Positions 34,416 through 49,049 are shown, numbered from the stretch's first letter. The stretch is 64,000 bases of DNA from an uncultured archaeon (GCA_963817525.1 CAWFOU010000001.1:1-64000), one strand, 5' to 3'. Program-made: numbers and translations. The notes: generated by a model from the sequence alone, not told the origin.

Positions 34416-35636
34416 GTGGGGGCAGCAGGCAGCTTCTTCGCGGACATCACCCGCGTCGACAGGTCGAGCCTGAGCGTCCAGACGGGGTTCAGGGCAGCCA
34501 TCTTGGCGATAACCCCCCTTGTACTCGGGCTCGCGATCGGCCAGCCTCAGTGGGTCTACGCCACCCTGGCCGCAATGATTCTCCTAAACACCGAGGGCCC
34601 GCCTGCCACCGCGCTCCCGCTCAGTGTCGTGCTCCTCGCATGCTTCACCGAGCCCCTCGCATTCTCGCTGGGCACTCTCGTGGGCCTCAGCGGGCTTTTC
34701 GCCGTCCCACTGGTCGGCGTCGGGGTCTTCATCGCGCGACTGTCGGTTGGGAACCCCCGACTCGCGCCCGTGGGGACTTTCACGGCGATCTTCTTCGCCG
34801 TGGGCGTGGGCCTGCCAGGCGGCTCGGTCCCCGACGCGTGGGTGCGGCTCTGGATCTGCCTCGCGGGTGCCTTCTGGGCGCTGCTGGGTGCCTGGGCCCA
34901 CCGGACCCTGGTCTCGAAGTGGCACATCGCAGGATCTCGGGGCGCCTTATCTGGGTCGTTCGGTCCGCGGGTGAGGGGCTATTTCCGGCTCCCTTCGACA
35001 CGGTCCGATGAGTTCCGCCTTGCCGCGGCGGTGGGTGCGGCTTCGGCGGCCGGCCTCGCGATAGGCTTGTCGCTGGGGTTCCCTAGGGACTTTTGGATAA
35101 TCGTGACTCTGCTCCTGGCGACTCGGCCTAGGCTAGGCCCCACCGTCTCCTCGGCGGCGATGTTGGTCCTCGGCACCATAGCTGGGGCTATTGTTGCGGC
35201 CGCGATAACTCTCGAGATCCACGAAGCCTACATCCTAGAACTTCTGCTTTTCGCCTTCGGGGTCGGCATGTTCGCCGCCAGAGGCGTGAACTTCGGGCTG
35301 GTGCAGATGTTCTTCACGCCGTTCCTGATAATCCTCCTCAACCTCCTGTATCCGGGGGAGTGGTATCTTGCGGGGGTCCGGATCCTGGACGTTGCGATAG
35401 GAGGCGCGCTGGCGGTCGCCACGGTCTATTTCTTGGGGGAGATCGGCGTAGAGCTGCACAACTTCGCGCGACGGGACCGGCGAGGGGCTGGTGGGGCGGG
35501 GGCTCCAGGAGAAGGCACGTCCCGGGGCCCACCGTCCTCCCAAAGCGCCTCAAGTGAAGCTATGGCCACGGACGGATCGTGTCGATGCGTCACTCTAGGC
35601 GGAGCTGAAGGCCCAGTTGCTTTGACAGGTTCCTGA
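34416..35636 (+). CDS. FUSC-family membrane protein
   Basis: Multiple TMs; WIIVT..., GTIAGA, RILDVAIGG; the low-complexity C-terminal tail is suspect. Confidence 0.8.
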   Translation: MGAAGSFFADITRVDRSSLSVQTGFRAAILAITPLVLGLAIGQPQWVYATLAAMILLNTEGPPATALPLSVVLLACFTEPLAFSLGTLVGLSGLFAVPLVGVGVFIARLSVGNPRLAPVGTFTAIFFAVGVGLPGGSVPDAWVRLWICLAGAFWALLGAWAHRTLVSKWHIAGSRGALSGSFGPRVRGYFRLPSTRSDEFRLAAAVGAASAAGLAIGLSLGFPRDFWIIVTLLLATRPRLGPTVSSAAMLVLGTIAGAIVAAAITLEIHEAYILELLLFAFGVGMFAARGVNFGLVQMFFTPFLIILLNLLYPGEWYLAGVRILDVAIGGALAVATVYFLGEIGVELHNFARRDRRGAGGAGAPGEGTSRGPPSSQSASSEAMATDGSCRCVTLGGAEGPVALTGS

Positions 35637-38781: not shown

Positions 38782-39242
38782 TTGATGAAGAAGAGGGTCC
38801 TAGTAGCGCTCCTCAAGCGACGCATCTCGACCGAAAAGATTGCAAAGAGACTCAATCGTAGTCCTGGCAACGTCTTGTATTGGGAGCGAAAGTATGGACT
38901 CCGGCCGGCGTTTGCCTCCATGGGAAATGGGCGAAGAATTCGATCGCCCGAAGAAATGTCCGCATACATGATCAGCAACCCCACGCTTCGCCGTAGGGAA
39001 CTGAAAGCGAAGGCCATCGCCTACAAAGGAGGTAAATGCGTATTTTGTGGCTACACCCGATGCAACGCCGCATTGGAGTTTCACCATCTTGATAGGAAAG
39101 CGAAATCTTCGGCCTCTCCAGGAAAGGTATTATCAGGTCGTGGAATTCAATACAGACTGAGCTCGACAAATGCGTGCTCATCTGCGCAGATTGCCATCGC
39201 GAGGTCGAAGTCGGTGTGAGGACCTTTCCTCCCGGCGCCTAG
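38782..39242 (+). pseudogene. HTH-HNH endonuclease, frameshifted near 39105
   Basis: KGGKCVFCGY..CNAALEFHHLD, continuing in another frame as IFGLSRKGIIRSWNSIQTELDKCVLICADCHREV*. Confidence 0.78.
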
Positions 39243-39334
39243 GTTCTCCCATTCCAAAGAGTCTCGCCAACGACTCAAGGGCCTTGCCTGTCTGCTTGGT
39301 CCAGAGTTCCTCATAATCGCCCTTCGATAGTTGC

Positions 39335-40057
39335 TTACAACCCCCGTCGATTGCCCCAGAGCAGAATGTGAAGGCGGAGAGAGAATCGGAACCCTCTCTC
39401 CTTGCATACCTCAACAAGCCATCTGCTCCTCTCGAGGAGGATAGCCGCGTCGATCCCCTCCGGCATCAGTATCACCGTGCCCCTTGGAATCACGAACCGC
39501 GAAATCATCGCCTCGACCTCGTCGAGGTCCTTCTTGTCGCACACGACGAACTTGAACCATGCCTTCCCGGACCCCACAAAGGCCCGCAGCGCATCCGGTC
39601 GCGTCCTCACGCCCTCCTCGTCGAGGCTGTTGGAGATCTTGGGTGAGACGTTGAAGCATTCGACCGACCTCGCAAAGTCAGCGCTCGGCGCTATCGTCCC
39701 GTTGGTCTCGACCTCGATGAAGAACCCCTCGCTCCTAAGGGTCGCGAGGAGAGGCGCTAGCACCCTCTGGTGCAGGAGCGGCTCGCCCCCCGTAAGGACC
39801 AGGTGTTTGCAGCCGAGGCTGGTCACCCTCTCAATCACCGCTGCGACGGACATGGGGACGTACTCCACGCCCGCCTTCGCCTTGTCTTGGTCCAGCCAGG
39901 TGTACTTGCTGTCGCACCACGTGCACGTCAGGTTGCAACGATAGGTGCGCAGGAACACGCTCGGGGTCCCCGAGTGGACCCCCTCCCCCTGGATGCTGAG
40001 GAAAATCTCCGATACCGGCAACTGCTCTTCTGCTGTTTGCACTCTTTTCTCCTCCAA
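39335..40057 (-). CDS. queE: 7-carboxy-7-deazaguanine synthase (radical SAM)
   Basis: SIQGEG, CNLTCTWCDS, TGGEPLL, ETNG, SPK, RLH. Confidence 0.93.
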   Translation of the reverse strand: MEEKRVQTAEEQLPVSEIFLSIQGEGVHSGTPSVFLRTYRCNLTCTWCDSKYTWLDQDKAKAGVEYVPMSVAAVIERVTSLGCKHLVLTGGEPLLHQRVLAPLLATLRSEGFFIEVETNGTIAPSADFARSVECFNVSPKISNSLDEEGVRTRPDALRAFVGSGKAWFKFVVCDKKDLDEVEAMISRFVIPRGTVILMPEGIDAAILLERSRWLVEVCKERGFRFSLRLHILLWGNRRGL

Positions 40058-40195
40058 CTCCGGGATTTTTTAGAGGCGGAACGGACGGAGGCCCGCTCAA
40101 CCCGCCTATGTCATGCTGCCGCGCCCGTCGCTATTTAGCTTTCGCCCGATCGACGCTTGGCAGCTCTGGAAATCCGCCTCGGGCGGTGTGCGACC

Positions 40196-41137
40196 CTAGG
40201 TCACCGTGAGAGAGGTGACGCTGATCGTGGTGTCGTATGGCGTCGCAACCCCATTCACCGTCGACGATCCGGCTATCGCCAGGTATGTGACTAGCTTGGT
40301 GCTGCTCCCGGAGGGGGTTCCCACGGAGAGCGCGAAGTTCGTTAGAGTGGTGGGGGTGCCGTTGCAAGGCGTTATCGTCTGCGGAAGCGTGTTCGCGACG
40401 TAGTTCGTCACCTTGAATGTGTTGGTCCCGAGCGTCACGCTAGATGTCCCTGTCGACTTGAAGTACTGGTTGGAGGTATAGGTGGAGAGCTGGTTAGCGG
40501 CCTGTATCTCCGCCGAGAAGCCCGCGAAGAGGCCTACCACCATGCTCCCGCTGATGGAGCTTGTCAGGTTGTATCCGGCCTCATTTATGGCGATAGCGGT
40601 CCCATTGCTCCTAAGGATCCACGCTGTGGAATTCATGTTCTGGCCCTCTCCTTGGAAGTTCAGGTTGACCTTGAAGGTAGTCGCGCTGGCGTACACGACG
40701 CTATATGACTCCGTGATGCTCACCGCCTGTCCGCCGGACGTGCCGTTGAACTGCAGCCCCAGCGCGGAGAACGCGCTGAGGAGAGGCACGACGCTCGCCT
40801 CCGTGGAGGTGGTAGACGTGCTCGACGAAGTGCAGGAAGTCGAGACCGCGCTTGCCGTGCTGCTCGAAGTCGTGGAGCTACTAGAGGACTTTGTGGAGCT
40901 ACTGGAGCTCGAGATCATGGCCGAGCTTGTCGAGGACGACGAGGAGCTCGTCACCATGGCGGACGAGAGGGAAGATGAACTCATGGAGCTTGAGACCATC
41001 AAGGAAGAACTCGAAGTAGTCGAGGAGGACGACTTGGCCGACAAGGCTTCGTACGCCCCAATCCCTACAACGCCGATTACAACTATAGCAATTACCGCGA
41101 TGGCCAGCGGGGCCATCCCCTTTGACTTGTGATACAT
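40196..41137 (-). CDS. Ser/Thr-rich membrane-anchored surface glycoprotein
   Basis: KG|MAPLAIAV class-III-like leader and TM, poly-Ser linker, NxT/S sequons. Confidence 0.8.
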   Translation of the reverse strand: MYHKSKGMAPLAIAVIAIVVIGVVGIGAYEALSAKSSSSTTSSSSLMVSSSMSSSSLSSAMVTSSSSSSTSSAMISSSSSSTKSSSSSTTSSSTASAVSTSCTSSSTSTTSTEASVVPLLSAFSALGLQFNGTSGGQAVSITESYSVVYASATTFKVNLNFQGEGQNMNSTAWILRSNGTAIAINEAGYNLTSSISGSMVVGLFAGFSAEIQAANQLSTYTSNQYFKSTGTSSVTLGTNTFKVTNYVANTLPQTITPCNGTPTTLTNFALSVGTPSGSSTKLVTYLAIAGSSTVNGVATPYDTTISVTSLTVT

Positions 41138-41298
41138 CAGTATGTGGCAACGACTGAGACTATATAAGCGCGCGGAGGATTGTTCGCGCAGACGAAGCTA
41201 ACAAAGTCCGCCTGGTCGCCCAGCGCTCAAGCCTAGTAAGGATGATTCTAACACTAACCATATAACGGAGATAATGCGGAATATTCGACAGTGAACCG

Positions 41299-42228
41299 AT
41301 GTTGGACACAATGAAAGTAAAGAACTCTTACATCCCGTGGTCCTTCCTGGACATAGCAGCGAAGGAAGAGGGGCTTTTCGAGAAGCGGGGCCTCGACGTG
41401 GAATTCTTCGCGGTGGGCCGCTCTGAGGCCGAGCCAGCCGACAAGGTCGCCTGGTATGGGAACCTCGTGAGGGACGGGAACCTCGACGCCTATTCCGTTT
41501 GCGCCTGGGGGGCCATCGACAGGCTCGCAGAGAAGGAGCGGGAGAAGATCGTGGCCGCAACGACCTCCTCTGGCTATGCTTTCTCCATACTGGTCGCGCC
41601 GGGTCTCGGAATCAAGACCGCGGCGGACCTCTCTGAGATACCGATCGCCGTCAACATGAAGACCGGCTCCCATTACTGCATCCTGAGCGACCTCGAGAGG
41701 GTGCTGCCATACAGCAAGATTAAGGTCATTCACGGAGGGGAGCCCCACAACAGGCTGAAGGGCCTCTTGGAAGGCAAGTTCCAAGCGGTCGCGCTCATCA
41801 GTCCCTACACGGAGCTCGCCGTCCAGCTCGGCTTCGTCAAGGTCGCCGAGACCAAGACCGTAGACGTCCTGGCATTCGTGGCCCGGGACGACATCCCGAT
41901 GGATGTCCTGACCCGCTATCTGGCCGCCCTAGACGAGGCTGCCAAGATGATGAAGAATGACCCGGAGAGGTTCAGGGACCTCTACGTGAGGACCCTGAGG
42001 GAGACGTTCCTCGGGTTCCCAGACGAGTGGAAGACGAGGATCAACAAGCTGATCGACAAGATCGCCCCGACCATCCCCATCACCACCTGGGGCGAGCTGA
42101 CGGAGTACCCGAGGGAGTCGTTCAACTCGCTCAGCACCTGGATGACCAAGCACAACCTGCTTCAGGCCAACGTCCAGTATGAGAACATGGTGATGAGCCA
42201 GCCCCTAGAGAACGTCCAGAGCGGCTAG
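41299..42228 (+). CDS. SsuA/NMT1/THI5-fold protein without signal peptide (copy 1)
   Basis: AAKEEGLFEKRGLDVE, YSVCAWG, GSHY, LLEGKFQAVALISPY. Confidence 0.78.
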   Translation: MLDTMKVKNSYIPWSFLDIAAKEEGLFEKRGLDVEFFAVGRSEAEPADKVAWYGNLVRDGNLDAYSVCAWGAIDRLAEKEREKIVAATTSSGYAFSILVAPGLGIKTAADLSEIPIAVNMKTGSHYCILSDLERVLPYSKIKVIHGGEPHNRLKGLLEGKFQAVALISPYTELAVQLGFVKVAETKTVDVLAFVARDDIPMDVLTRYLAALDEAAKMMKNDPERFRDLYVRTLRETFLGFPDEWKTRINKLIDKIAPTIPITTWGELTEYPRESFNSLSTWMTKHNLLQANVQYENMVMSQPLENVQSG

Positions 42229-42245
42229 AGGGAGGCGAGTCGTCA

Positions 42246-43175
42246 ATGGCGCAGAAGCTGACAACAATCTCGCACGGCTACTACCAGCCGTACTTCTACT
42301 GGATGTTCCCGATAGTGGTGGCTAGGGAGGAGGGCCTTTTCGAGAAGGAAGGGGTCGCCCTTGACGTCCACGACATCGTGCAAGGGGGGCAGCCAGAGAA
42401 CAAGGCGGAGTGGTATAGGGAAGCGCTCGACGAGCGGTCCCGGGACTTTTACTTCTGCTGCGCGTGGCAGGGCGTCTACAGCACCTGCGAGACGGGCAAG
42501 GGCAAGATAGGCGCGGCGATAAAGTCCACGCTAATCAAGACCTTCGGGATCTACACAAAGCCCGACTCCCCCATCCGCAACATACTCGACATCACCGAGA
42601 ACGGAGTGCAGATAGCGGTGAATAAGAACGCGGACGCGCACTACGTGACCTTGGAGAACCTCGCCGAATTCGTGCCCGCCTCGCAGATCAAGCTCAAGCA
42701 CCTGGGCGGGATCGACGGGTGCTTCGAGGCCCTGGCGAGAGGAGAAGTCCAGGCCGCGACGCTGGCAGGGCCGTACGCCGAGGCCGCAGAGGCGATAGGC
42801 TACAGGAGGGTGATGGCGCTCTCGCGGACCCTCCCTACGCTCATCGTGTTCAACGATGCCGTCGAGACTTCGGCGGCGAACTCGTTCCTGGCGGCCGTCA
42901 ACAAGGCGGTGGACAAGGTGAACGGCGACAGGACCAAGTATCGCGCAAGGTACCTGAAAGAGTTCGAGGAGGTCGTGAACAAATACATTCCCGAGCTCAA
43001 GGCCGACCTGCCAAAGATAAAGGCGAGGATTAGCCTCCCCACTTGGGCAGAGACCAAGGTGCTTGGCGAGCCCGAATTCAACGAGATTCATGACTTCCTG
43101 GTGGCGCACGGCCTCTCGTCCAAGGGGAAGGGATACGAGGGGACGGTCAAGACGAACCTCGCCATAGCGCACTGA
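42246..43175 (+). CDS. SsuA/NMT1/THI5-fold protein without signal peptide (copy 2)
   Basis: VAREEGLFEKEGVALD, YFCCAWQG, DAHY, LARGEVQAATLAGPY; paralog of the upstream gene. Confidence 0.78.
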   Translation: MAQKLTTISHGYYQPYFYWMFPIVVAREEGLFEKEGVALDVHDIVQGGQPENKAEWYREALDERSRDFYFCCAWQGVYSTCETGKGKIGAAIKSTLIKTFGIYTKPDSPIRNILDITENGVQIAVNKNADAHYVTLENLAEFVPASQIKLKHLGGIDGCFEALARGEVQAATLAGPYAEAAEAIGYRRVMALSRTLPTLIVFNDAVETSAANSFLAAVNKAVDKVNGDRTKYRARYLKEFEEVVNKYIPELKADLPKIKARISLPTWAETKVLGEPEFNEIHDFLVAHGLSSKGKGYEGTVKTNLAIAH

Positions 43176-43194
43176 CCTCGCGAGTGTGGGCTAG

Positions 43195-44574
43195 ATGGTA
43201 ACCAGAATGGAGAGGGCAATAGAGATTCCGCGCCGGTGGTACAACATCGCCCCAGACCTCCCGAGCAAGCTCCCCCCGGTGATAGACCAGAACACGCACG
43301 GCATCGCGGACAAGAAGATACTCCACAGGCTCTTCGTCAACGAGGTCGCAAAGGCCGAGTACTCCGGCGAGCGCTTCATCACCATCCCGGAGGAGCTCAG
43401 GGACGTATACTCCATCTGGAGGCCCACTCCCCTGGTGAGGGCGAAGCGGCTCGAGAGATACCTCAACACTCCGGCCAGGATCTACTACAAGAACGAGACC
43501 GTGAGCCCGCCGGGGTCCCACAAGGCCAACGCGGCCGTGGCCCAGGCCTACTACGCGAAGCAGGAGGGGACGGACAGGCTCGTGACCAGCACGACGGCGG
43601 GCCAGTGGGGCACCGCGCTCGCCTTCGGCTGCACCATCTTCGGGGTAAAGTGCACGGTCTACATGTCAAAGTCAAGCTACGACAGCAAGCCCTATCGGAA
43701 GGACCTAGCGGAGGCCTGGGGCGCCGAGATAATCTCCAGCCCCAGTACGAGGACGAAGGTGGGCAGGGACATCCTGAAGGAGGACCCGAACTCCAGCGGG
43801 TCGATGGCGGTCGCGAAGAGCGAGGCCCTCGAGGACACCGAGAACGACCCCACTGCAAAGGACGCCGTGGGGAGCATCATGAACTTCGTCCTCGCAACGC
43901 AGACGGTGATAGGCCAGGAGGCGCAGGCGCAGATGGAACCCTACGAAGACTACCCTGACATGGTGATCGGCTGCGTCGGAGGAGGAAGCAACTTCTCCGG
44001 GATATTCTGGCCGTACTACTACGAGATGGTCAACAAGATCAGCCCCAAGCAGGTCGAGTTCCTCGGCGTGGAGTCGTCCGCCGTCCCGAAGCTGACGCAG
44101 GGCCAATACATCTACGACCACTCCGACGTGATGCGGATGAGCCCGCTCTTCAAGATGTACACCGCCGGGCACACGTACAACCCTCCCGAGATCCACACGG
44201 GCGGCTTGAGGGTCCACGGCACGGCCCCGACGCTCAGCCTCCTGCACGCCGCGGGCATCGTCAAGGCCGTCGCGTACAACCAGGTGGAGGTGTTCGAGGC
44301 CGGCGCCCTGTTCGCGAGGACCGAAGGCATCCTCCCCGCTCCAGAGTCCGCCCACGCGATAAAGGCCACGATAGACGAGGCCAAGCGTTGCAAGGCGCAG
44401 AACAAAGAGAAGGTCATACTCTTCAGCCTGTGCGGACACGGCATCCTGGACATCGAAGGATACCGCGAGTACTTCTCGGGCAAGATGACGGAGAACAACG
44501 CCGACCCAGCGGAGCTGAAGAGGTCCCTCGACGAGGTGAAGGGCCTCTATCCCTGGCTCCAGGGCAGCGACTAA
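43195..44574 (+). CDS. trpB2: TrpB2-family PLP enzyme with non-canonical active site
   Basis: WYNI, WRPTPL, GSHKAN (PLP Lys), GCVGGGSNF, PAPESAHA, CGHG; the TETGAGQWG motif reads TSTTAGQWG. Confidence 0.9.
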   Translation: MVTRMERAIEIPRRWYNIAPDLPSKLPPVIDQNTHGIADKKILHRLFVNEVAKAEYSGERFITIPEELRDVYSIWRPTPLVRAKRLERYLNTPARIYYKNETVSPPGSHKANAAVAQAYYAKQEGTDRLVTSTTAGQWGTALAFGCTIFGVKCTVYMSKSSYDSKPYRKDLAEAWGAEIISSPSTRTKVGRDILKEDPNSSGSMAVAKSEALEDTENDPTAKDAVGSIMNFVLATQTVIGQEAQAQMEPYEDYPDMVIGCVGGGSNFSGIFWPYYYEMVNKISPKQVEFLGVESSAVPKLTQGQYIYDHSDVMRMSPLFKMYTAGHTYNPPEIHTGGLRVHGTAPTLSLLHAAGIVKAVAYNQVEVFEAGALFARTEGILPAPESAHAIKATIDEAKRCKAQNKEKVILFSLCGHGILDIEGYREYFSGKMTENNADPAELKRSLDEVKGLYPWLQGSD

Positions 44575-44609
44575 GCATCAAATACACGGACGGTTGAGCT
44601 AGCGAGCCC

Positions 44610-45446
44610 ATGGCCAAGCGAAGACCTCTCTCCTACGGAGAGTACCTTGGCCTCGACGAGCTCCTGGACCTCCAGCGCCTCGTCTCGAAGCCCAGGCAGC
44701 ACGACGAGGTGCTGTTCCTCATCGCCCACCAGGCCTACGAGCTCTGGTTCAAGCTGATGCTCAACGAGCTGGAGACCGCCATCTCGCACATGCTGGCCGA
44801 CAACCTCGCCGAGGCGACCAGGCTGATACGCAGGGTCGTCCCGGTCCAGAGGGTCCTGATAGACCAGCTCGAGGTCCTCGAGACGATCAGGCCGACGGAT
44901 TTCTTGAAGTTCAGGAGCATACTCCATCCGGCGAGCGGCTTCCAGTCGCTCCAGTTCAGGGAGCTCGAGTTCATCTCCGGGCAGAAGGACGAGAGGTTCC
45001 TCAAGCTCCACGCCGGGAACGAGAAGGACTACGAGCAGCTCCTGAAGAGGTGGGAGGCGCCCTCGCTCTGGGACGGGTTCAGGACGGTCCTCGAGGAGAG
45101 GGGGTTCGACGTCGGGGGGAGGGCGAAGGGGAAAGAGGCCGAGGTCTTCGAGCTCGAGGTCCAGGCGTCCCTCAAGATATTCACGGAGAGCAAGTACCTG
45201 CACGTCGCCGACCTCGCCGAAGCCATGCTGGAGTACGACAAGTACTTCCAGCTCTGGCGCAGCCACCACATCATGATGGTGGAGCGCGTGATAGGCGGGA
45301 GGCCGGGCACGGGCGAACGTGAGGTCAAGAAGACGATGGGGCCGACCTCATTCCGTCCCTCAGGCGTCAACTACCTCCAGACGACGATGGGCAAGAGGTT
45401 CTTCCCGGCGCTCTGGGCTGCCCGGACAAGGATCGGGGCGTACTGA
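44610..45446 (+). CDS. kynA: Tryptophan 2,3-dioxygenase family heme enzyme
   Basis: SYGEYL, HDEVLFLIAHQAYELWFK, SGFQSLQFRELE, HIMMVERVIG..GTG, FFPALW. Confidence 0.88.
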   Translation: MAKRRPLSYGEYLGLDELLDLQRLVSKPRQHDEVLFLIAHQAYELWFKLMLNELETAISHMLADNLAEATRLIRRVVPVQRVLIDQLEVLETIRPTDFLKFRSILHPASGFQSLQFRELEFISGQKDERFLKLHAGNEKDYEQLLKRWEAPSLWDGFRTVLEERGFDVGGRAKGKEAEVFELEVQASLKIFTESKYLHVADLAEAMLEYDKYFQLWRSHHIMMVERVIGGRPGTGEREVKKTMGPTSFRPSGVNYLQTTMGKRFFPALWAARTRIGAY

Positions 45447-45462
45447 GCCTCTAGGGCTCGGC

Positions 45463-46416
45463 TCACGGAAGCCGAAGCTTGGAGAAAGTCTCCAGCGTCC
45501 CCGGGAGGGTCGAGAGGTCTTCCGCGTCCGGATGGAAGGAATCCTTCGCGGAGTACTCGACCTCGAAGGGGTACCCCGCCTTCACGCCGGGGAGTGAGGG
45601 GGATATCCCTGTGATCTTCCCGAGGAGCCTCTGACCCTCCTTGCTCAACAGAAAGTCCAGGAAGTTGCGCGCCGACTTGTTGTCCTTCGCCGTCTTCAGG
45701 AGTCCCGCGGTGGTGAACGTGAGCATCCGTGGTATCCGCTCGCTCGCGAACGACCTGACCGGGGAGCCCGCGGTCCTCTCACGGAAGTAGGCCAGCGAAT
45801 ACACTGTCAAGGACAGGTCGTGGTCGCCGTCGATGAGGCCCTGCAACAGGTGGTCGATGCAGTCGTAGGTCAGGGGCCTGTTGGGGCCTGCCAGGCTCTC
45901 GAGGAACGCTGTCCACTTCTTCTCGGAGACCCTCCTTTTGAGGAAGTTCATGTAGTGGGCGCCGATGTTGCCGAACTTGCTCGTTGTGAGAGACTGCATC
46001 CCGAGCCTCCCCCTCCATTCGGGGGACGCTATCTCCTCGAGGCTCTCCGGCAGGTCCTTGGCGGCGAGCCTCTTCGGGTTGTGGGCCATCGTCATGAACG
46101 TGACGCCCGCCGCGAACCAGTTGAGCCCCCTATCGTAGAACTCCTGGGGATAGGCGCCGATGTCCTTCGCGTCGTGTGGTGTGAAGAGCCCCTCAGCGTT
46201 CATTTGCAGGGCGACGTAGTGCGGGACCAATACGATGTCCGCCGTCCTCATGCCGTTCTTCATCTCCTCGCGAATCCGCTCCCGCACCTGGAAGGGGTGG
46301 TCGTCGAGGTAGACAGGAAACTCCTCCAGGGTGTTCTTCTTCCTGAACTCCCAAAGGAGGTCGGACGTACCGGACCGGAGCCCGAGCGAAGCGTAGATTA
46401 TCACGCGCTCAGGCAT
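45463..46416 (-). CDS. AfuA/FbpA-like solute-binding-fold protein without signal peptide
   Basis: IIYASL, ADIV, LPESLEEIASPEWRGRL, ARNFLDFLLSKEGQ. Confidence 0.75.
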   Translation of the reverse strand: MPERVIIYASLGLRSGTSDLLWEFRKKNTLEEFPVYLDDHPFQVRERIREEMKNGMRTADIVLVPHYVALQMNAEGLFTPHDAKDIGAYPQEFYDRGLNWFAAGVTFMTMAHNPKRLAAKDLPESLEEIASPEWRGRLGMQSLTTSKFGNIGAHYMNFLKRRVSEKKWTAFLESLAGPNRPLTYDCIDHLLQGLIDGDHDLSLTVYSLAYFRERTAGSPVRSFASERIPRMLTFTTAGLLKTAKDNKSARNFLDFLLSKEGQRLLGKITGISPSLPGVKAGYPFEVEYSAKDSFHPDAEDLSTLPGTLETFSKLRLP

Positions 46417-46487
46417 TCGATTTTCGTGCTTGTCTCCAGTTATTTATCGGTTGTTCCTCCGTTAGGAGGTTAGGCGGCGTGCTCCCT

Positions 46488-47060
46488 TCATTTCGGATAG
46501 GCCGCGATTACTTTCACCATGGAGCTTATCAAGGCGCTGGCGTCCTCCGGCTCGACGTTCGAGCCCAGTCTCGCTCCCTGCGATGCACCATCGTCAGTGG
46601 CAGAGTCGTATTCAATGGTCTCAGTGTCGGCCAATCCATCTTTCCCGATGAGCGCGTCGATGTGTCGGTCGTCTCCCAATTCTCTTAACCTATCGAATGC
46701 AGCGAGGATGATGGTTTCGTGTCCGTTCTCATGGATCCGGGCAGCCTGCAAATACCTTTTCCATTCCAGAGCATCTTGATTCGACGCTCCTTTTCCATCC
46801 CATTCGGGCAAGGTCGTAAGGACGCTATAGGTAACCAGTTTGCCCTCCCGGCCATCGACAGATTGCCAAGAGTAGGTTGTGAAAGATGGATGCCCGTCTT
46901 TGTTCGGCGTCAGCTCTCTCATGCTTTCTCTTATCTTCTCGAGGCTTCCTCCTGCTACCGAGTACGTTTTGACAGACGAGCTTCCGTGGACTTCCAGATA
47001 GGTCAAGGCGCCAGGCCGTAAGGCTGCGGCGAGGGATAAAAGTTCTGGGTCACCCAGTTT
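46488..47060 (-). CDS. Hypothetical protein, AT-richer than neighbours (start uncertain)
   Basis: About 190-aa open frame filling the gap; the ORF-track N-terminus overlaps the aminotransferase. Confidence 0.45.
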   Translation of the reverse strand, partial: KLGDPELLSLAAALRPGALTYLEVHGSSSVKTYSVAGGSLEKIRESMRELTPNKDGHPSFTTYSWQSVDGREGKLVTYSVLTTLPEWDGKGASNQDALEWKRYLQAARIHENGHETIILAAFDRLRELGDDRHIDALIGKDGLADTETIEYDSATDDGASQGARLGSNVEPEDASALISSMVKVIAAYPK

Positions 47061-47070
47061 TCGAGGACAA

Positions 47071-48210
47071 TTAGCCGGAGCCCCGGAAGAAGTCGCCGAG
47101 CCTGCGCGTCCCCTCCACGATGGTCTCGGGGGGGCTGCCGAAGGAGATCCTGAGGTGCTTCTCGCCCGAGGGGCCAAAGATGACGCCGGGGAGCACCGCG
47201 ACATTGTGTTCGTCGAGGAGCCGGCGGGCGACCGTCATCGAGCTCAGTCGCCCCTCAAACTTCGGGAACCCGTAGAACGCCCCCTCCACCTTCCCGCTCT
47301 GTAGGGCGGGGATCTTCGAGAGCCCCTCCTCGAGGAGCCCCCTCCTCTTCCTGAGCTCCTCCCTGAACTCCGCGGTGTAGCGGTCACAGTTTCGGATTGC
47401 GTAGGCCGAGGCAGCCTGGATGAACGGCGGGAAGCAGGTCACGGCGGTCTCGAGGAACCTGTTGACCCTCAGGATCGTCTCCTTGTCGGCGACGACGTAG
47501 CCGGCGCGCCAGCCGGTCATCGCGAAGCTCTTCGAGAGGCTGAAAAGAGAGATGACGGCCCGCGGGGATCCCTCCATCGAGCCGATCGAGAGGTGCTTCT
47601 TCTCGTAGACCAGGTCCTCGTACGCCTCGTCGCTGATGACCTTTATCCCGCGCCCTACGCAGAGATCGAGCAGCTCCTTCAGCTCGCTCCTCCCGAAGAC
47701 CTTCCCTGCAGGGTTCGAAGGCGTGTTGACGATGATCGCACGCGTCCTTGGGGTGATCTTGGACTTGACCTCGTCGACGTCCAGGGAGAAGTCTTCGGCG
47801 AGCTTGTACCTCACCGGCTTGCCTCCCGAGAGCAGCACTGGCTCGGAGTAGTAGTATCCCGGGTCTGGGACCAGCGCCTCGTAGCCCTGCTTGTACAGCG
47901 AAAGCAGCGACGCGTAGATGGATAACTTGGTCGTGATGAAGATGACGTTCTCCAGCCCTGCCTTGAGGTGGTTCTTCCGCCTCACCTTATCCGCTATCGC
48001 CTCCCTGAGGTCGTCCGACCCCCAAGACGAGCTGTAGTGCCCACCCCCGCTCTTCATGCTCTGGTAGGCCGCCTCGACTATCGGGAGCGGGGTGTCGAAC
48101 GACGGCTCCCCTATGGAAAGGGTGAACACCTTCTCGCCCGCGGCTCTCTTCTTCGCCGCGAGGTTGAATATCTCAAAGGCGGGCGAGTCTTGAATCTCGT
48201 CTAGGGGCAT
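47071..48210 (-). CDS. Class I PLP aminotransferase (AspC/kynurenine aminotransferase-like)
   Basis: IGEPSF, NTPSNPAG, SDEAY, SLSKSFAMTGWRAG, GAFY. Confidence 0.92.
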   Translation of the reverse strand: MPLDEIQDSPAFEIFNLAAKKRAAGEKVFTLSIGEPSFDTPLPIVEAAYQSMKSGGGHYSSSWGSDDLREAIADKVRRKNHLKAGLENVIFITTKLSIYASLLSLYKQGYEALVPDPGYYYSEPVLLSGGKPVRYKLAEDFSLDVDEVKSKITPRTRAIIVNTPSNPAGKVFGRSELKELLDLCVGRGIKVISDEAYEDLVYEKKHLSIGSMEGSPRAVISLFSLSKSFAMTGWRAGYVVADKETILRVNRFLETAVTCFPPFIQAASAYAIRNCDRYTAEFREELRKRRGLLEEGLSKIPALQSGKVEGAFYGFPKFEGRLSSMTVARRLLDEHNVAVLPGVIFGPSGEKHLRISFGSPPETIVEGTRRLGDFFRGSG

Positions 48211-48370
48211 CCCCTTCGCGCGCTGAGCGTCCGGATTTAAGCGTGCAAGGAGGCTCGCCCTACTGCATGTTTACGAACGCACGCCAGAAGCCGGTCATTC
48301 TGGACAATTGGACGCTTCCTTGCGGACAGACTTATATATAATATAGCCTGACTAGGTCTCCGTCAACCGC

Positions 48371-48706
48371 TTGAAGAAAGTCCAAGCCGAGGTCAGAAAG
48401 GAGAGGTTCCCAGAGGTGGATTTCGCGCTGAAGAGGCTCGGAGTCCCCGGGCTCACCGTGGCCGAAGAGCAGCGCGCAGGCAGGGGAATGTGGACCTATC
48501 CGCTCGAGAACGTAAAGCACGTCATCCTCACCGTCGTGGTGGAGGACGAGAGCGCCAGCAAGGTGGTGGAGTCAATCTGCGGGACCGCCTCGACAAAGTC
48601 CTGGGGCGATGGCCGGATAGCGGTGAGCACGGTCGAGAACGTCTACGACATTGGCTCTGGAAGATTCGACCGAAGCGAGCTGGCGATGCCGACGCTGGGT
48701 CCCTGA
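48371..48706 (+). CDS. Divergent P-II family protein
   Basis: MKKVQAEVR...GLTV...GDGRIAVSTVENVYDI; short T-loop. Confidence 0.82.
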   Translation: MKKVQAEVRKERFPEVDFALKRLGVPGLTVAEEQRAGRGMWTYPLENVKHVILTVVVEDESASKVVESICGTASTKSWGDGRIAVSTVENVYDIGSGRFDRSELAMPTLGP

Positions 48707-48728
48707 AATTCTTAGTTTTCCTAAGGCG

Positions 48729-48971
48729 TTATTCCGTCGGACCGCCGCTGGCCTTGTACTTTGAGATCAGCGCGGCCACGCCTGCTATCACGAGCATCAA
48801 CGAGCAGAGGTATAGCACAGGGACGAGCGGCGGCTGGAGGCCGTCTCCGCCGGCGTTGACGAACGTCTCGTAGGTCATTAGGCTCCCTATCGCGAGGAAC
48901 GCCACCCCGACCATCCGAATCAGGACGTTCACCCTGGAGTCGTCGGCGTTAATCGTCTTGCCCTTGCTCAT
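48729..48971 (-). CDS. Small membrane protein (2 TM)
   Basis: Two hydrophobic helices. Confidence 0.6.
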   Translation of the reverse strand: MSKGKTINADDSRVNVLIRMVGVAFLAIGSLMTYETFVNAGGDGLQPPLVPVLYLCSLMLVIAGVAALISKYKASGGPTE

Positions 48972-49049
48972 CTTCGACTCTTCTCCCGACCGCAGAAAAG
49001 GAGTAAATAAGTTATCCAGTCGCCGCCATGAGCGACGCCCCGCTTGGGG

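Follow-up and report, generated by a model that had tools for sequence, protein, structure and literature searches.

TrpB2 enzymes are indole-salvaging, O-phosphoserine-dependent tryptophan synthases, with structures represented by 6hul, 4qys and 6hte from Sulfolobus. For the heme dioxygenase TDO the reference used here is the Xanthomonas campestris enzyme (2nw7/2nw8). In quinolobactin-like sets of secondary metabolism, TDO is combined with a formamidase and an aminotransferase to give quinoline-2-carboxylates. The family of NMT1, SsuA, ThiY, Thi5 and DszB shares a two-lobed type II binding-protein fold, and includes Thi5 and DszB, which are cytoplasmic. Finally, the tyrosine synthases derived from Thermotoga TrpB (8egy-8eh1) have lost the conserved Glu (E105G); they form C-C bonds with non-indole arenes, and a crystal structure of one contains 4-hydroxyquinoline as a mimic of the substrate (PMC13174591).

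Layout and conservation of the gene set

The DNA analysed here (the window, 64,000 nucleotides; GCA_963817525.1 CAWFOU010000001.1:1-64000) comes from an uncultured archaeon. At 41299-45446 there are four plus-strand genes with intergenic gaps of 17, 19 and 35 nt, the tight operon already described in an earlier reading of the sequence alone (the sequence-only reading). In order, these encode SBP1 (41299-42228, 309 aa) and SBP2 (42246-43175, 309 aa), both cytoplasmic proteins of the NMT1/SsuA/ThiY/Thi5 fold; a TrpB-like PLP enzyme, called here the TrpB2 variant (43195-44574, 459 aa); and a TDO-like heme dioxygenase (44610-45446, 278 aa; PF03301). Converging on them from the minus strand are SBP3 (45463-46416, 317 aa), a cytoplasmic SBP_bac_6 protein (PF13343) whose stop codon is 16 nt from that of the TDO gene, and a class I aminotransferase (47071-48210, 379 aa; PF00155). 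The convergence of these two genes had been described correctly, with the correction that a DUF922 ORF (46488-47204) lies between them. An ORF of this kind is found in this position in this genome only, and does not belong to any gene group conserved across the 20 loci. The four operon genes and SBP3 make up the core of the module, and the aminotransferase is a facultative member.

The operon had also been said to have no transporter beside it, and indeed the large ORFs examined from 32402 to 57487 yielded no match to a permease or ATPase domain. At related loci the flanking ORFs were compared, ten of them being sampled for Pfam domains, and one of the ten was transporter-related: an ABC ATPase of the oligopeptide type, some 600 nt away from TDO (locus L068).

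The linkage of these genes is not chance. TDO is found in 22 of the 401 genomes of the order, and the SBP1 ortholog in the identical 22, with neither being present in the other 379. The sequence-only reading had proposed looking for the genes together elsewhere; in 15 of the 20 loci compared, which come from 20 genomes, all five core genes stand together, with no fewer than four arrangements of order and orientation, and the remaining five loci are on contigs of 7.3 kb or less that end in or beside the set. SBP3 is linked at every locus with a long enough contig. A DNA pattern for the Ser variant of TrpB2 (S-T-T-A-G-Q-W-G) was also searched for in one genome per species, covering 185,579 species, and gave 108 stretches. 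Among the 80 of these that were listed, 13 hold a real TrpB2, all from Thaumarchaeota or Nitrososphaerales; SBP1 and SBP2 adjoin all 13, and TDO is seen in 11, i.e. wherever the stretch reaches it. A further 80 metagenome loci were found by way of an Asp-type sister protein (P0184). The four Ser-variant loci among them all have the gene set, and neither TDO nor an SBP gene adjoins any of the other 76, which are of the Asp or Glu types. Among the loci and listed matches searched, the Ser variant is found only beside this gene set. The data support the four operon genes being a conserved functional unit, and the conserved set is one of five to seven genes in a small group of soil archaea.

The TrpB2 variant and the TDO-like protein

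The TrpB2 variant aligns with TrpB2 over its full length (E 2.7e-123 to 6hul) and scores above the NCBIfam cut-offs (NF009057, 613 bits against 366; TIGR01415, 560.7 bits against 518.85). It keeps the PLP lysine (PPGSHKAN, aligned to GSHKIN of 6hul and conserved in all 14 orthologs), the GGGSN loop and the Arg at the position equivalent to Asp305. It differs from TrpB2 at the catalytic Glu, present in both 6hul and 4qys, which we take to be the indole-activating E109 of Salmonella numbering. Here it is replaced by Ser, as the sequence-only reading had stated; the residue is Ser in 13 of the 14 cluster orthologs, the window's own included, and Asn in the other one. Further differences are Thr for the adjacent Gly, a new Lys (in ..AKSEA..) in place of Ile or Cys in a tunnel-lining segment, and Val for Tyr in GGLRVHG. 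The Lys and Val changes are presumably in the indole tunnel, this placement being made via Salmonella TrpB numbering and not from a structure of the variant itself. The Glu and the three other pocket positions are altered in all 14 orthologs, which form one clade (SH-aLRT 100), separate from and outside the main Glu-type clade.

It is common for TrpB2-like proteins to lack the Glu (22 of 99 representatives whose motif could be read), so that the Glu substitution alone is not exceptional. Judged from the aligned residues, the nucleophile (indole) pocket is consistently rebuilt, which argues against ordinary synthesis of tryptophan from indole. E105G in the tyrosine synthases suggests that an enzyme without this Glu can still form C-C bonds with other arenes (PMC13174591). 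Those enzymes are laboratory-made and of the TrpB1 type, whereas the variant described here is a natural TrpB2 clade with Ser and further changes.

These changes bear on the simplest explanation, that the locus scavenges indole into the kynurenine pathway. On this explanation the TrpB2 variant would make tryptophan from free indole, TDO and the aminotransferase would break it down via kynurenine into kynurenate, either to gain nitrogen or to detoxify, and the SBP-fold proteins would bind or buffer indole or tryptophan. Such a scheme agrees with the known role of TrpB2 enzymes, with TDO residues that fit tryptophan (see below), and with an aminotransferase of aromatic type. It does not agree with the altered pocket, nor with the fact that the genome retains, elsewhere, canonical trpB1 (620 bits), trpA and a second TrpB2 of the Glu type, the trpB1 (the separate canonical trpB for which the sequence-only reading had proposed a check) and the second TrpB2 both keeping the catalytic Glu. 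In this genome, which is 95% complete, there is no match to kynureninase (TIGR01814) and no quinolinate phosphoribosyltransferase (QPRT) was found, the only match to the QRPTase domain (PF01729) being a 406-aa nicotinate phosphoribosyltransferase (NF006415, 474 bits). Among 97 genomes of the family, none yielded NadA. There is no evident NAD route, and the failure to find kynureninase, NadA or QPRT argues against both plain tryptophan salvage and such a route. A synthesis of tryptophan followed by its destruction would also need explaining. Indole salvage, which the sequence-only reading had put forward as the simpler alternative, is weakened by these results and appears improbable.

The TDO-like protein, the single TDO copy in the genome, scores 164.6 bits against PF03301 (gathering score 34.9) and aligns over its whole length with the Xanthomonas enzyme (E 5.7e-46). 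It differs from bacterial TDO in falling below the equivalog cut-off of TIGR03036 (218.9 bits against 390.7), and in that the kynureninase/NAD context was not found. In comparison with 2nw7 it keeps the equivalents of Y24, Y27, L28, F51, H55, R117, L120, S124, G125, H240 and T254, so that the distal and proximal His, the carboxylate-binding Arg, the aromatic pocket and the Thr of the GTG loop are retained; H220, H40, R102, Y9, Y12, L13 and F36 of the TDO-like protein correspond to H240, H55, R117, Y24, Y27, L28 and F51 respectively. The sole exceptions among the indole-pocket and carboxylate-binding residues are Y113, which is F, and S123, which is A. The pocket and heme-ligand positions are also conserved in the TDO orthologs whose aligned stretch covers them. 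The short GTGG-SSG substrate loop, by contrast, is not kept. It reads GTGE, with an insertion of 13 residues after the GTG motif, and an insertion of 10-13 residues is found in the same place in all 13 orthologs aligned, which confirms the loop insertion reported earlier.

Since the tryptophan-binding residues are kept, a non-indole substrate for TDO is unlikely, and the residue comparison suggests that the substrate is most likely L-tryptophan or a close indole analogue. This has consequences for the new aromatic pathway proposed in the sequence-only reading, in which the TrpB2 variant would equip a non-indole ring, aromatic or heterocyclic, with an alanyl side chain, and the TDO-like enzyme would then oxidise or cleave the new amino acid, either for catabolism or on the way to a non-canonical amino acid or cofactor. 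Part of that proposal stands, namely the conserved functional unit and the rebuilt nucleophile pocket with its lost Glu. It also draws support from the score of TDO below the equivalog cut-off, from the conserved insertion, which adjoins the residue holding the substrate amino group, and from the relatives of the SBP-fold proteins, which include the arene-releasing DszB and the N-heteroaromatic binders ThiY and PqqT. The part that is not supported is the non-indole TDO substrate: a site with only two replacements fits tryptophan or a close analogue. Tagging a non-indole ring and then cleaving it is therefore not the favoured order, and we regard the scheme as doubtful.

The binding-protein-fold proteins and accessory genes

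SBP1 and SBP2 are paralogs (30% identity, E 2e-38). SBP1 has no match in Pfam, the one family it matches, weakly, being TIGR01728 (3e-8, 33 bits, cut-off 163.5); PF09084 gives E 0.042 for SBP2 and no match for SBP1. The AF2 models, with pLDDT of 94 for SBP1 and 89.7 for SBP2, match SsuA, TauA and ThiY and have the two-lobed type II fold (Foldseek E 1e-11 to 1e-15), with TM about 0.7 for the best binding proteins and 0.5-0.6 for Thi5 and DszB. The top Foldseek matches are ThiY (3ix1), TauA, SsuA, Thi5 and DszB for SBP1, and SsuA and Thi5 for SBP2; the likeness to the Thi5 fold (4h6d, 4h67) is real. Both proteins differ from this family in that identity is just 12-18% and no Pfam family is reached, in having no adjoining transporter, and in having conserved Cys, His and aromatic residues of their own. 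In SBP1 C127 is invariant and C68 nearly so; in SBP2 C71, C72 and C159 are invariant, and the N-terminal loop is rich in aromatic residues. The pair had been called Cys-bearing from the single sequence, and these cysteines are conserved. SBP1 homologs number 62 in 5.8 billion proteins, and all those with a named organism are from Thaumarchaeota or Nitrososphaerales.

No signal peptide, lipobox or membrane anchor was found in SBP1, SBP2 or SBP3, in agreement with the earlier claim. The ORFs begin at the first possible start codon past the upstream stop, so that no upstream extension is possible, and the fold starts within the first few residues, the first strand starting at residues 3-8 in the models of SBP1 and SBP2. 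In being cytoplasmic the two proteins resemble Thi5 and DszB.

SBP3 (PF13343, 3.8e-15) resembles ferric-, thiamin- and AEP-binding proteins, its nearest solved relatives being the ferric-binding HitA and FbpA (4e-13). On alignment to HitA the Tyr-Tyr pair, which we take to be the iron ligands of ferric-binding proteins, reads Tyr-Ser. SBP_bac_6 relatives at two loci (L082 and L083) have an N-terminal extension of about 100-150 residues with a hydrophobic start, which SBP3, having no signal peptide, does not share. A third cytoplasmic paralog group (P3) lies within an ABC operon in two other families of the phylum, together with a membrane-anchored SBP_bac_6 protein that is 25-28% identical to SBP3, and with a TenA gene nearby.

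The presence of SBP1, SBP2 and SBP3 could mean that the target of the module is a different heteroaromatic ligand altogether. The module might serve a heteroaromatic cofactor or metal chelate, such as a thiamin-pyrimidine-like compound or an iron-binding quinoline, with SBP1 and SBP2 as Thi5- or DszB-like enzymes and SBP3 as a carrier of iron or of a ligand, perhaps for the heme enzyme. The P3 operon with its SBP3-like protein and TenA is in keeping with this, as are the best fold match of SBP1, the formylaminopyrimidine-binding ThiY, the high place of Thi5 for both SBP1 and SBP2, and the ferric-binding relatives of SBP3. However, no thiamin genes lie in or beside the module, no riboswitch was found, Pfam NMT1 is not reached, the putative iron ligands read Tyr-Ser, and the TrpB2 variant and TDO are left without a role. 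We consider it very unlikely.

The aminotransferase (PF00155, 182 bits) has as its nearest solved relative the aromatic aminotransferase of Pyrococcus horikoshii (1dju, 7.7e-68), and is linked in 12 of the 20 loci. In five of the 20 loci a metallo-beta-lactamase-fold hydrolase adjoins TDO, but a close copy of it is missing from the genome of the window.

A possible pathway and its host

For a lineage-specific pathway that joins ring opening by TDO with a non-standard TrpB2 alkylation, we put the chances at about even. We infer its chemical steps and their order from what is directly seen, which is gene content, linkage, co-occurrence, residue changes and folds. Given the kept active-site residues, the TDO-like enzyme would cleave the pyrrole ring in L-tryptophan, or in a close analogue with an indole ring, and so form a product of the N-formylkynurenine type. 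Deformylation would follow, with the metallo-beta-lactamase-fold hydrolase as candidate catalyst where it is present. Next, the aminotransferase of aromatic type would act, the outcome being a compound of the kynurenine or kynurenate (quinoline-2-carboxylate) type. The TrpB2 variant would still form the PLP-aminoacrylate from serine or O-phosphoserine; since its site lacks the indole-activating Glu, has acquired Ser, Thr and Lys, and is roomier, the most likely target of its alkylation is another aromatic nucleophile, probably an anionic or hydrogen-bond-accepting one. It may act before TDO, making a substituted tryptophan, with action after TDO, on the ring-opened or recyclised product, being slightly more likely. 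The three cytoplasmic SBP-fold proteins, whose relatives are linked to an ABC importer, may be ligand-holding proteins or new enzymes. Linkage of the aminotransferase in only 12 of 20 loci, and of the hydrolase in only five, speaks against this pathway.

A more specific form of this pathway, which we offer tentatively as a rather unlikely one, is that the TrpB2 variant, as a natural Glu-less beta-substitution enzyme, couples the aminoacrylate derived from serine with a nucleophile of the quinoline or anthranilate type, made from tryptophan by TDO and the aminotransferase. This would give a non-proteinogenic amino acid or a chelator not described before. SBP1 and SBP2, with their cysteines, would then be a new class of enzyme on the binding-protein fold, for example the missing N-formylkynurenine deformylase. 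The module resembles the quinolobactin-like kynurenine-branch sets in having clustered TDO and aminotransferase, with a hydrolase at some loci. It differs from them in that a kynurenine monooxygenase, an adenylating enzyme and an exporter are missing, that a TrpB2 variant and three SBP-fold proteins are added, and that the host is an archaeon.

A search of this genome for amoA gave no match, and neither did the control of the same search. The best explanation is that this is a lineage-restricted metabolic module whose hosts are soil Nitrososphaerales archaea. We found nothing in print on the module, and the gene set points to an undescribed aromatic amino-acid pathway in these archaea.

Genomic setting and conservation of the gene set

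Four genes lie close together on the forward strand, with gaps of 17, 19 and 35 nt. SBP1 (41299-42228) and SBP2 (42246-43175) encode proteins of the SsuA/ThiY/Thi5 fold, and are followed by a TrpB2-type gene (43195-44574; NF009057, 613 bits, above the cut-off) and by a gene for a tryptophan-2,3-dioxygenase-like heme enzyme, here TDO (44610-45446; PF03301, 164.6 bits; TIGR03036, 218.9 bits against a cut-off of 390.7). Three genes converge on them from the reverse strand: SBP3 (45463-46416), an SBP_bac_6 protein, a DUF922 ORF (46488-47204; PF06037, 1.5e-14) and a class I aminotransferase (47071-48210). The DUF922 ORF separates SBP3 from the aminotransferase gene and, in its longest reading, runs into the 3' end of the latter. 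Since none of the conserved gene groups of the 20 related loci compared includes it, it looks like a genome-specific insertion. The large ORFs examined from 32402 to 57487 showed no permease or ATPase domain, so the module is not a transporter. A search of 39000-49000 for riboswitches or other known RNAs gave nothing at E <= 1.

The sequence-only reading described a tight operon in which each member departs from its family norm. This is confirmed, and the deviations are conserved in the orthologs. The four-gene set is also linked elsewhere: all five core genes (SBP1, SBP2, TrpB2, TDO and SBP3) occur together in 15 of the 20 loci compared, the other five being contigs of 4.2-7.3 kb that end within or beside the gene set. 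In a sample of 401 genomes from the order, many of them incomplete MAGs and with kin that are not independent, SBP1 orthologs (44-94% identity) are present in 22; a TDO homolog is found in exactly the same 22, and neither gene in the remaining 379. Order and orientation vary by genus: SBP1 may precede or follow SBP2, the arrangement may be co-directional or divergent, and SBP3 may lie to either side, so that the genes have stayed linked through rearrangement. Of the 20 loci, 12 also have the aminotransferase linked, and a metallo-beta-lactamase-fold hydrolase adjoins TDO in five; the hydrolase was not found in the present genome, save for a distant relative (23% identical). The flanking genes are variable and have no common theme.

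Some individual loci are worth describing. In a locus of the same genus (G578:C3:170000-189000), a TGA interrupts TDO, and SBP3 and the aminotransferase are present only as fragments, with SBP1, SBP2 and TrpB2 intact; half of the module may be decaying here, or the assembly may contain errors. There are also two divergent versions of the module, whose TDO shares about 66% and about 50% identity with the one described here (contigs C127 and C200 of genome G474; locus L063 of genome G500), and one genome appears to carry both TDO types. A small radical SAM gene (39335-40057, reverse strand), divergent from SBP1, is syntenic within the genus only (four loci). Between it and SBP1, 40196-41137 (reverse strand) encodes a 313-residue protein whose hydrophobic N-terminal segment precedes very long Ser/Thr-rich tracts; it matches no Pfam family and is probably a glycosylated surface protein.

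The host genome (2.8 Mb, 15 contigs, 95% complete) is archaeal, since topoisomerase VI adjoins and the named homologs are from Thaumarchaeota or Nitrososphaerales. From the absence of an amoA match in it, the module hosts appear to be non-ammonia-oxidisers, but a control search likewise gave no match. The locus was found in 10 public sequencing runs, all DNA or unclassified and none listed as RNA, nine of them labelled as soil or peat metagenomes.

Our literature search, supplements of genome papers aside, turned up no account of this gene set. In the Gagatemarchaeaceae genome paper (PMC10640624), whose supplements may list these genes, the main text has no mention of tryptophan, kynurenine, dioxygenase, aromatic or thiamin. 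Each of the enzyme families is a known one; the novelty lies in how they are combined, in the conserved re-tooling of two of them, and in three binding-protein-fold proteins having been recruited to the cytoplasm.

Origin of the binding-protein-fold proteins

SBP1 and SBP2 are paralogs (30% identity) that match no Pfam family, with only a weak match to the SsuA family. Residues conserved in SBP1/SBP2 are K49, D63, Y65, C68, W70, N119, H125, H145, Y170 and E172. AlphaFold predicts a type II binding-protein fold for both (pLDDT 94 for SBP1 and 89.7 for SBP2), and the solved structures nearest to the models are ThiY, TauA, SsuA, Thi5 and DszB. Profiles of SBP1/SBP2 and of a third paralog group (P3) gave marginal matches to the sequences of solved structures, the best being SsuA at 1.5e-4, and the ESM Atlas returned only generic NMT1 'ABC substrate-binding' clusters. 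Prediction of an SBP1-SBP2 heterodimer scored 0.00, which gives no verdict either way. Among 5.8 billion clustered proteins SBP1 has 62 homologs, and all those with a named organism are from Thaumarchaeota or Nitrososphaerales. The best solved relatives of SBP3 are ferric-binding proteins (4e-13), with weaker matches to AEP-, thiamin- and PLP-binding proteins. In the alignment, the Tyr-Tyr pair of HitA, which we take to be its iron ligands, is Tyr-Ser in SBP3. Upstream extension of the ORF yields a signal peptide for none of the three.

A clue to their origin comes from P3, which is cytoplasmic, is found more widely in the phylum than SBP1/SBP2, and carries the motif D-x-Y-H-x-G-E-W. In two other families P3 lies inside an ABC importer operon (L082, G026:C1, 4713-11188; L083, G145:C2, 2953-7652). 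The operon also encodes an ATPase carrying a TOBE domain, a double permease and a membrane-anchored SBP_bac_6 protein with 25-28% identity to SBP3, and TenA is one to two genes away. The NMT1-type and SBP_bac_6-type proteins of the module therefore mirror an importer pairing, and within the module both types have lost their export signals. The P3 member of the importer operon is itself a binding-protein-fold protein without a signal peptide.

Active sites of TrpB2 and TDO

The motif ETGAGQWG of the solved Sulfolobus TrpB2 structures aligns with STTAGQWG in the module TrpB2. Across 14 module orthologs the catalytic Glu is Ser in 13 and Asn in one, the next Gly is Thr, the Ile is Lys in AKSEA, GGLRYHG becomes GGLRVHG and SGHG becomes CGHG, all of which supports the earlier description of the enzyme as rewired. 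The positions changed are presumably E109, G111, C170 and Y306 (Salmonella numbering), all of which we take to line the indole site or tunnel. Where a carboxylate and a small hydrophobic side chain stood, there are now two hydroxyls and a Lys, and the smaller Val takes the place of a Tyr. Because the nucleophile pocket has been rebuilt, the enzyme probably no longer activates plain indole, and the changes would fit a larger nucleophile, anionic or hydrogen-bond-accepting.

The genome also holds a separate canonical trpB (620 bits), adjacent to trpA at C1:130-132 kb, and a Glu-type TrpB2 at C1:595 kb; the module TrpB2 is therefore not the tryptophan synthase of the cell. Both of these other enzymes keep the standard residues at the positions changed in the module TrpB2. 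A third TrpB-like frame at C3:24850-25888 is in three pieces with one TGA inside, and could reflect a pseudogene or a frameshift in the assembly.

The distribution of the Ser variant was surveyed with a degenerate DNA pattern for S-T-T-A-G-Q-W-G across 185,579 species, each represented by one genome. The pattern matched 108 stretches; among the 80 listed, 67 are chance matches and 13 are real TrpB2 genes, all 13 from Thaumarchaeota/Nitrososphaerales records with SBP1 and SBP2 alongside. TDO is also present beside 11 of the 13, these being the ones whose stretch extends far enough. A metagenome scan with the nearest outgroup, the Asp-type P0184, returned 80 loci. The Ser variant occurs in four of these, and the module is present in all four. 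The other 76 (Asp or Glu types) showed no TDO or SBP genes within flanks that reach at most 8 kb; a single locus among them has an unrelated aminotransferase 5 kb away. In the surveys made, the Ser variant of TrpB2 accompanies only this gene set.

A quick maximum-likelihood tree (81 rows, omitting four near-duplicate orthologs and representatives outside 380-480 residues) places the module TrpB2 in one clade (SH-aLRT 100) with P0184 as its sister (support 89). It is not part of the main Glu-type clade, to which the host's other TrpB2 belongs. The motif was also readable in 99 of the best 150 representatives of 5,620 TrpB2-like matches, with Glu in 77, Asp in nine, Gly in five, Ala in two, Ser in two, and Thr, Cys, Arg and His in one each. 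About one fifth of those surveyed thus have no Glu, and TrpB2-like enzymes without it are therefore a wider, largely unexplored phenomenon. A search for fusion partners in the long representatives P0283, P0186, P0216, P0251 and P0237 found only the PALP domain. The Asp-type sister group of the module TrpB2 (motif DTGAGQWG; 12 metagenome loci, L194-L205) has conserved neighbours in the eight loci examined, namely an aldehyde dehydrogenase directly downstream, an MFS transporter and a divergent GGDEF-EAL protein; in two loci the aldehyde dehydrogenase may be fused.

TDO aligns end to end with the Xanthomonas enzyme (2nw7), keeping Y24, Y27, L28, F51, H55, R117, L120, S124, G125, H240 and T254, with Phe for Y113 and Ala for S123. 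Directly after the GTG motif there are 13 inserted residues relative to 2nw7, and all 13 TDO orthologs aligned have 10-13 extra residues at this site, with a conserved core. Because the active-site pocket is kept, the substrate is probably Trp or a close indole analogue. The earlier suggestion that the operon adds an alanyl chain to a non-indole ring, which TDO then oxidises or cleaves, is therefore unlikely as regards TDO.

Proposed chemistry and its significance

The simpler alternative, that indole is scavenged into a plain kynurenine or NAD route, also fares poorly. No kynureninase was found in the host genome, and none of the family's 97 genomes gave a NadA match, be they carriers of the module or not. 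ORFs of about 400-470 residues with a QRPTase_C domain are present in 77 of the 97, regardless of the module. The only QRPTase-domain match in the host (C7:687633-688853, 406 residues), the only one classified, is a nicotinate phosphoribosyltransferase (NF006415, 474 bits). De novo synthesis of NAD from Trp was therefore rejected. Members of the family may rely on salvaged niacin, or make NAD de novo by an unknown route. The host also has a Cyclase/KynB-like gene at C7:1055707-1056378, unlinked to the module.

The simplest fit is that TDO would act on Trp, and TrpB2 on a downstream compound of the kynurenine, anthranilate or kynurenate type. The aromatic-type aminotransferase, whose nearest solved relative is 1dju, would give ring closure to a quinoline-2-carboxylate, and the hydrolase, where present, would take off the formyl group. 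The reverse order is possible, in which TrpB2 first makes a substituted Trp that TDO then opens. Engineered tyrosine synthases derived from TrpB offer a parallel: they have the substitution E105G, and in a crystal of one of them 4-hydroxyquinoline mimics the substrate (PMC13174591), so that a TrpB without the Glu can, on that account, form C-C bonds with other arenes. It is worth adding that a FUSC_2 gene (34416-35636, forward strand), which is aromatic acid exporter-like, lies 6 kb upstream of the module and is syntenic within the genus only (six loci); such an exporter would suit a quinoline-carboxylate product, although the link is weak.

If this proposal is true, nature has made the same move as the engineers, the loss of the indole-activating Glu turning TrpB to other aromatic amino acids, and the module TrpB2 would be a ready-made biocatalyst scaffold. 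The SBP proteins would be another case of transporter binding proteins turned into components of a cytoplasmic pathway, beside Thi5, DszB, MqnA/D and prephenate dehydratase, and the abundant uncultured Thaumarchaeota of soil would gain a defined, testable piece of specialised metabolism.
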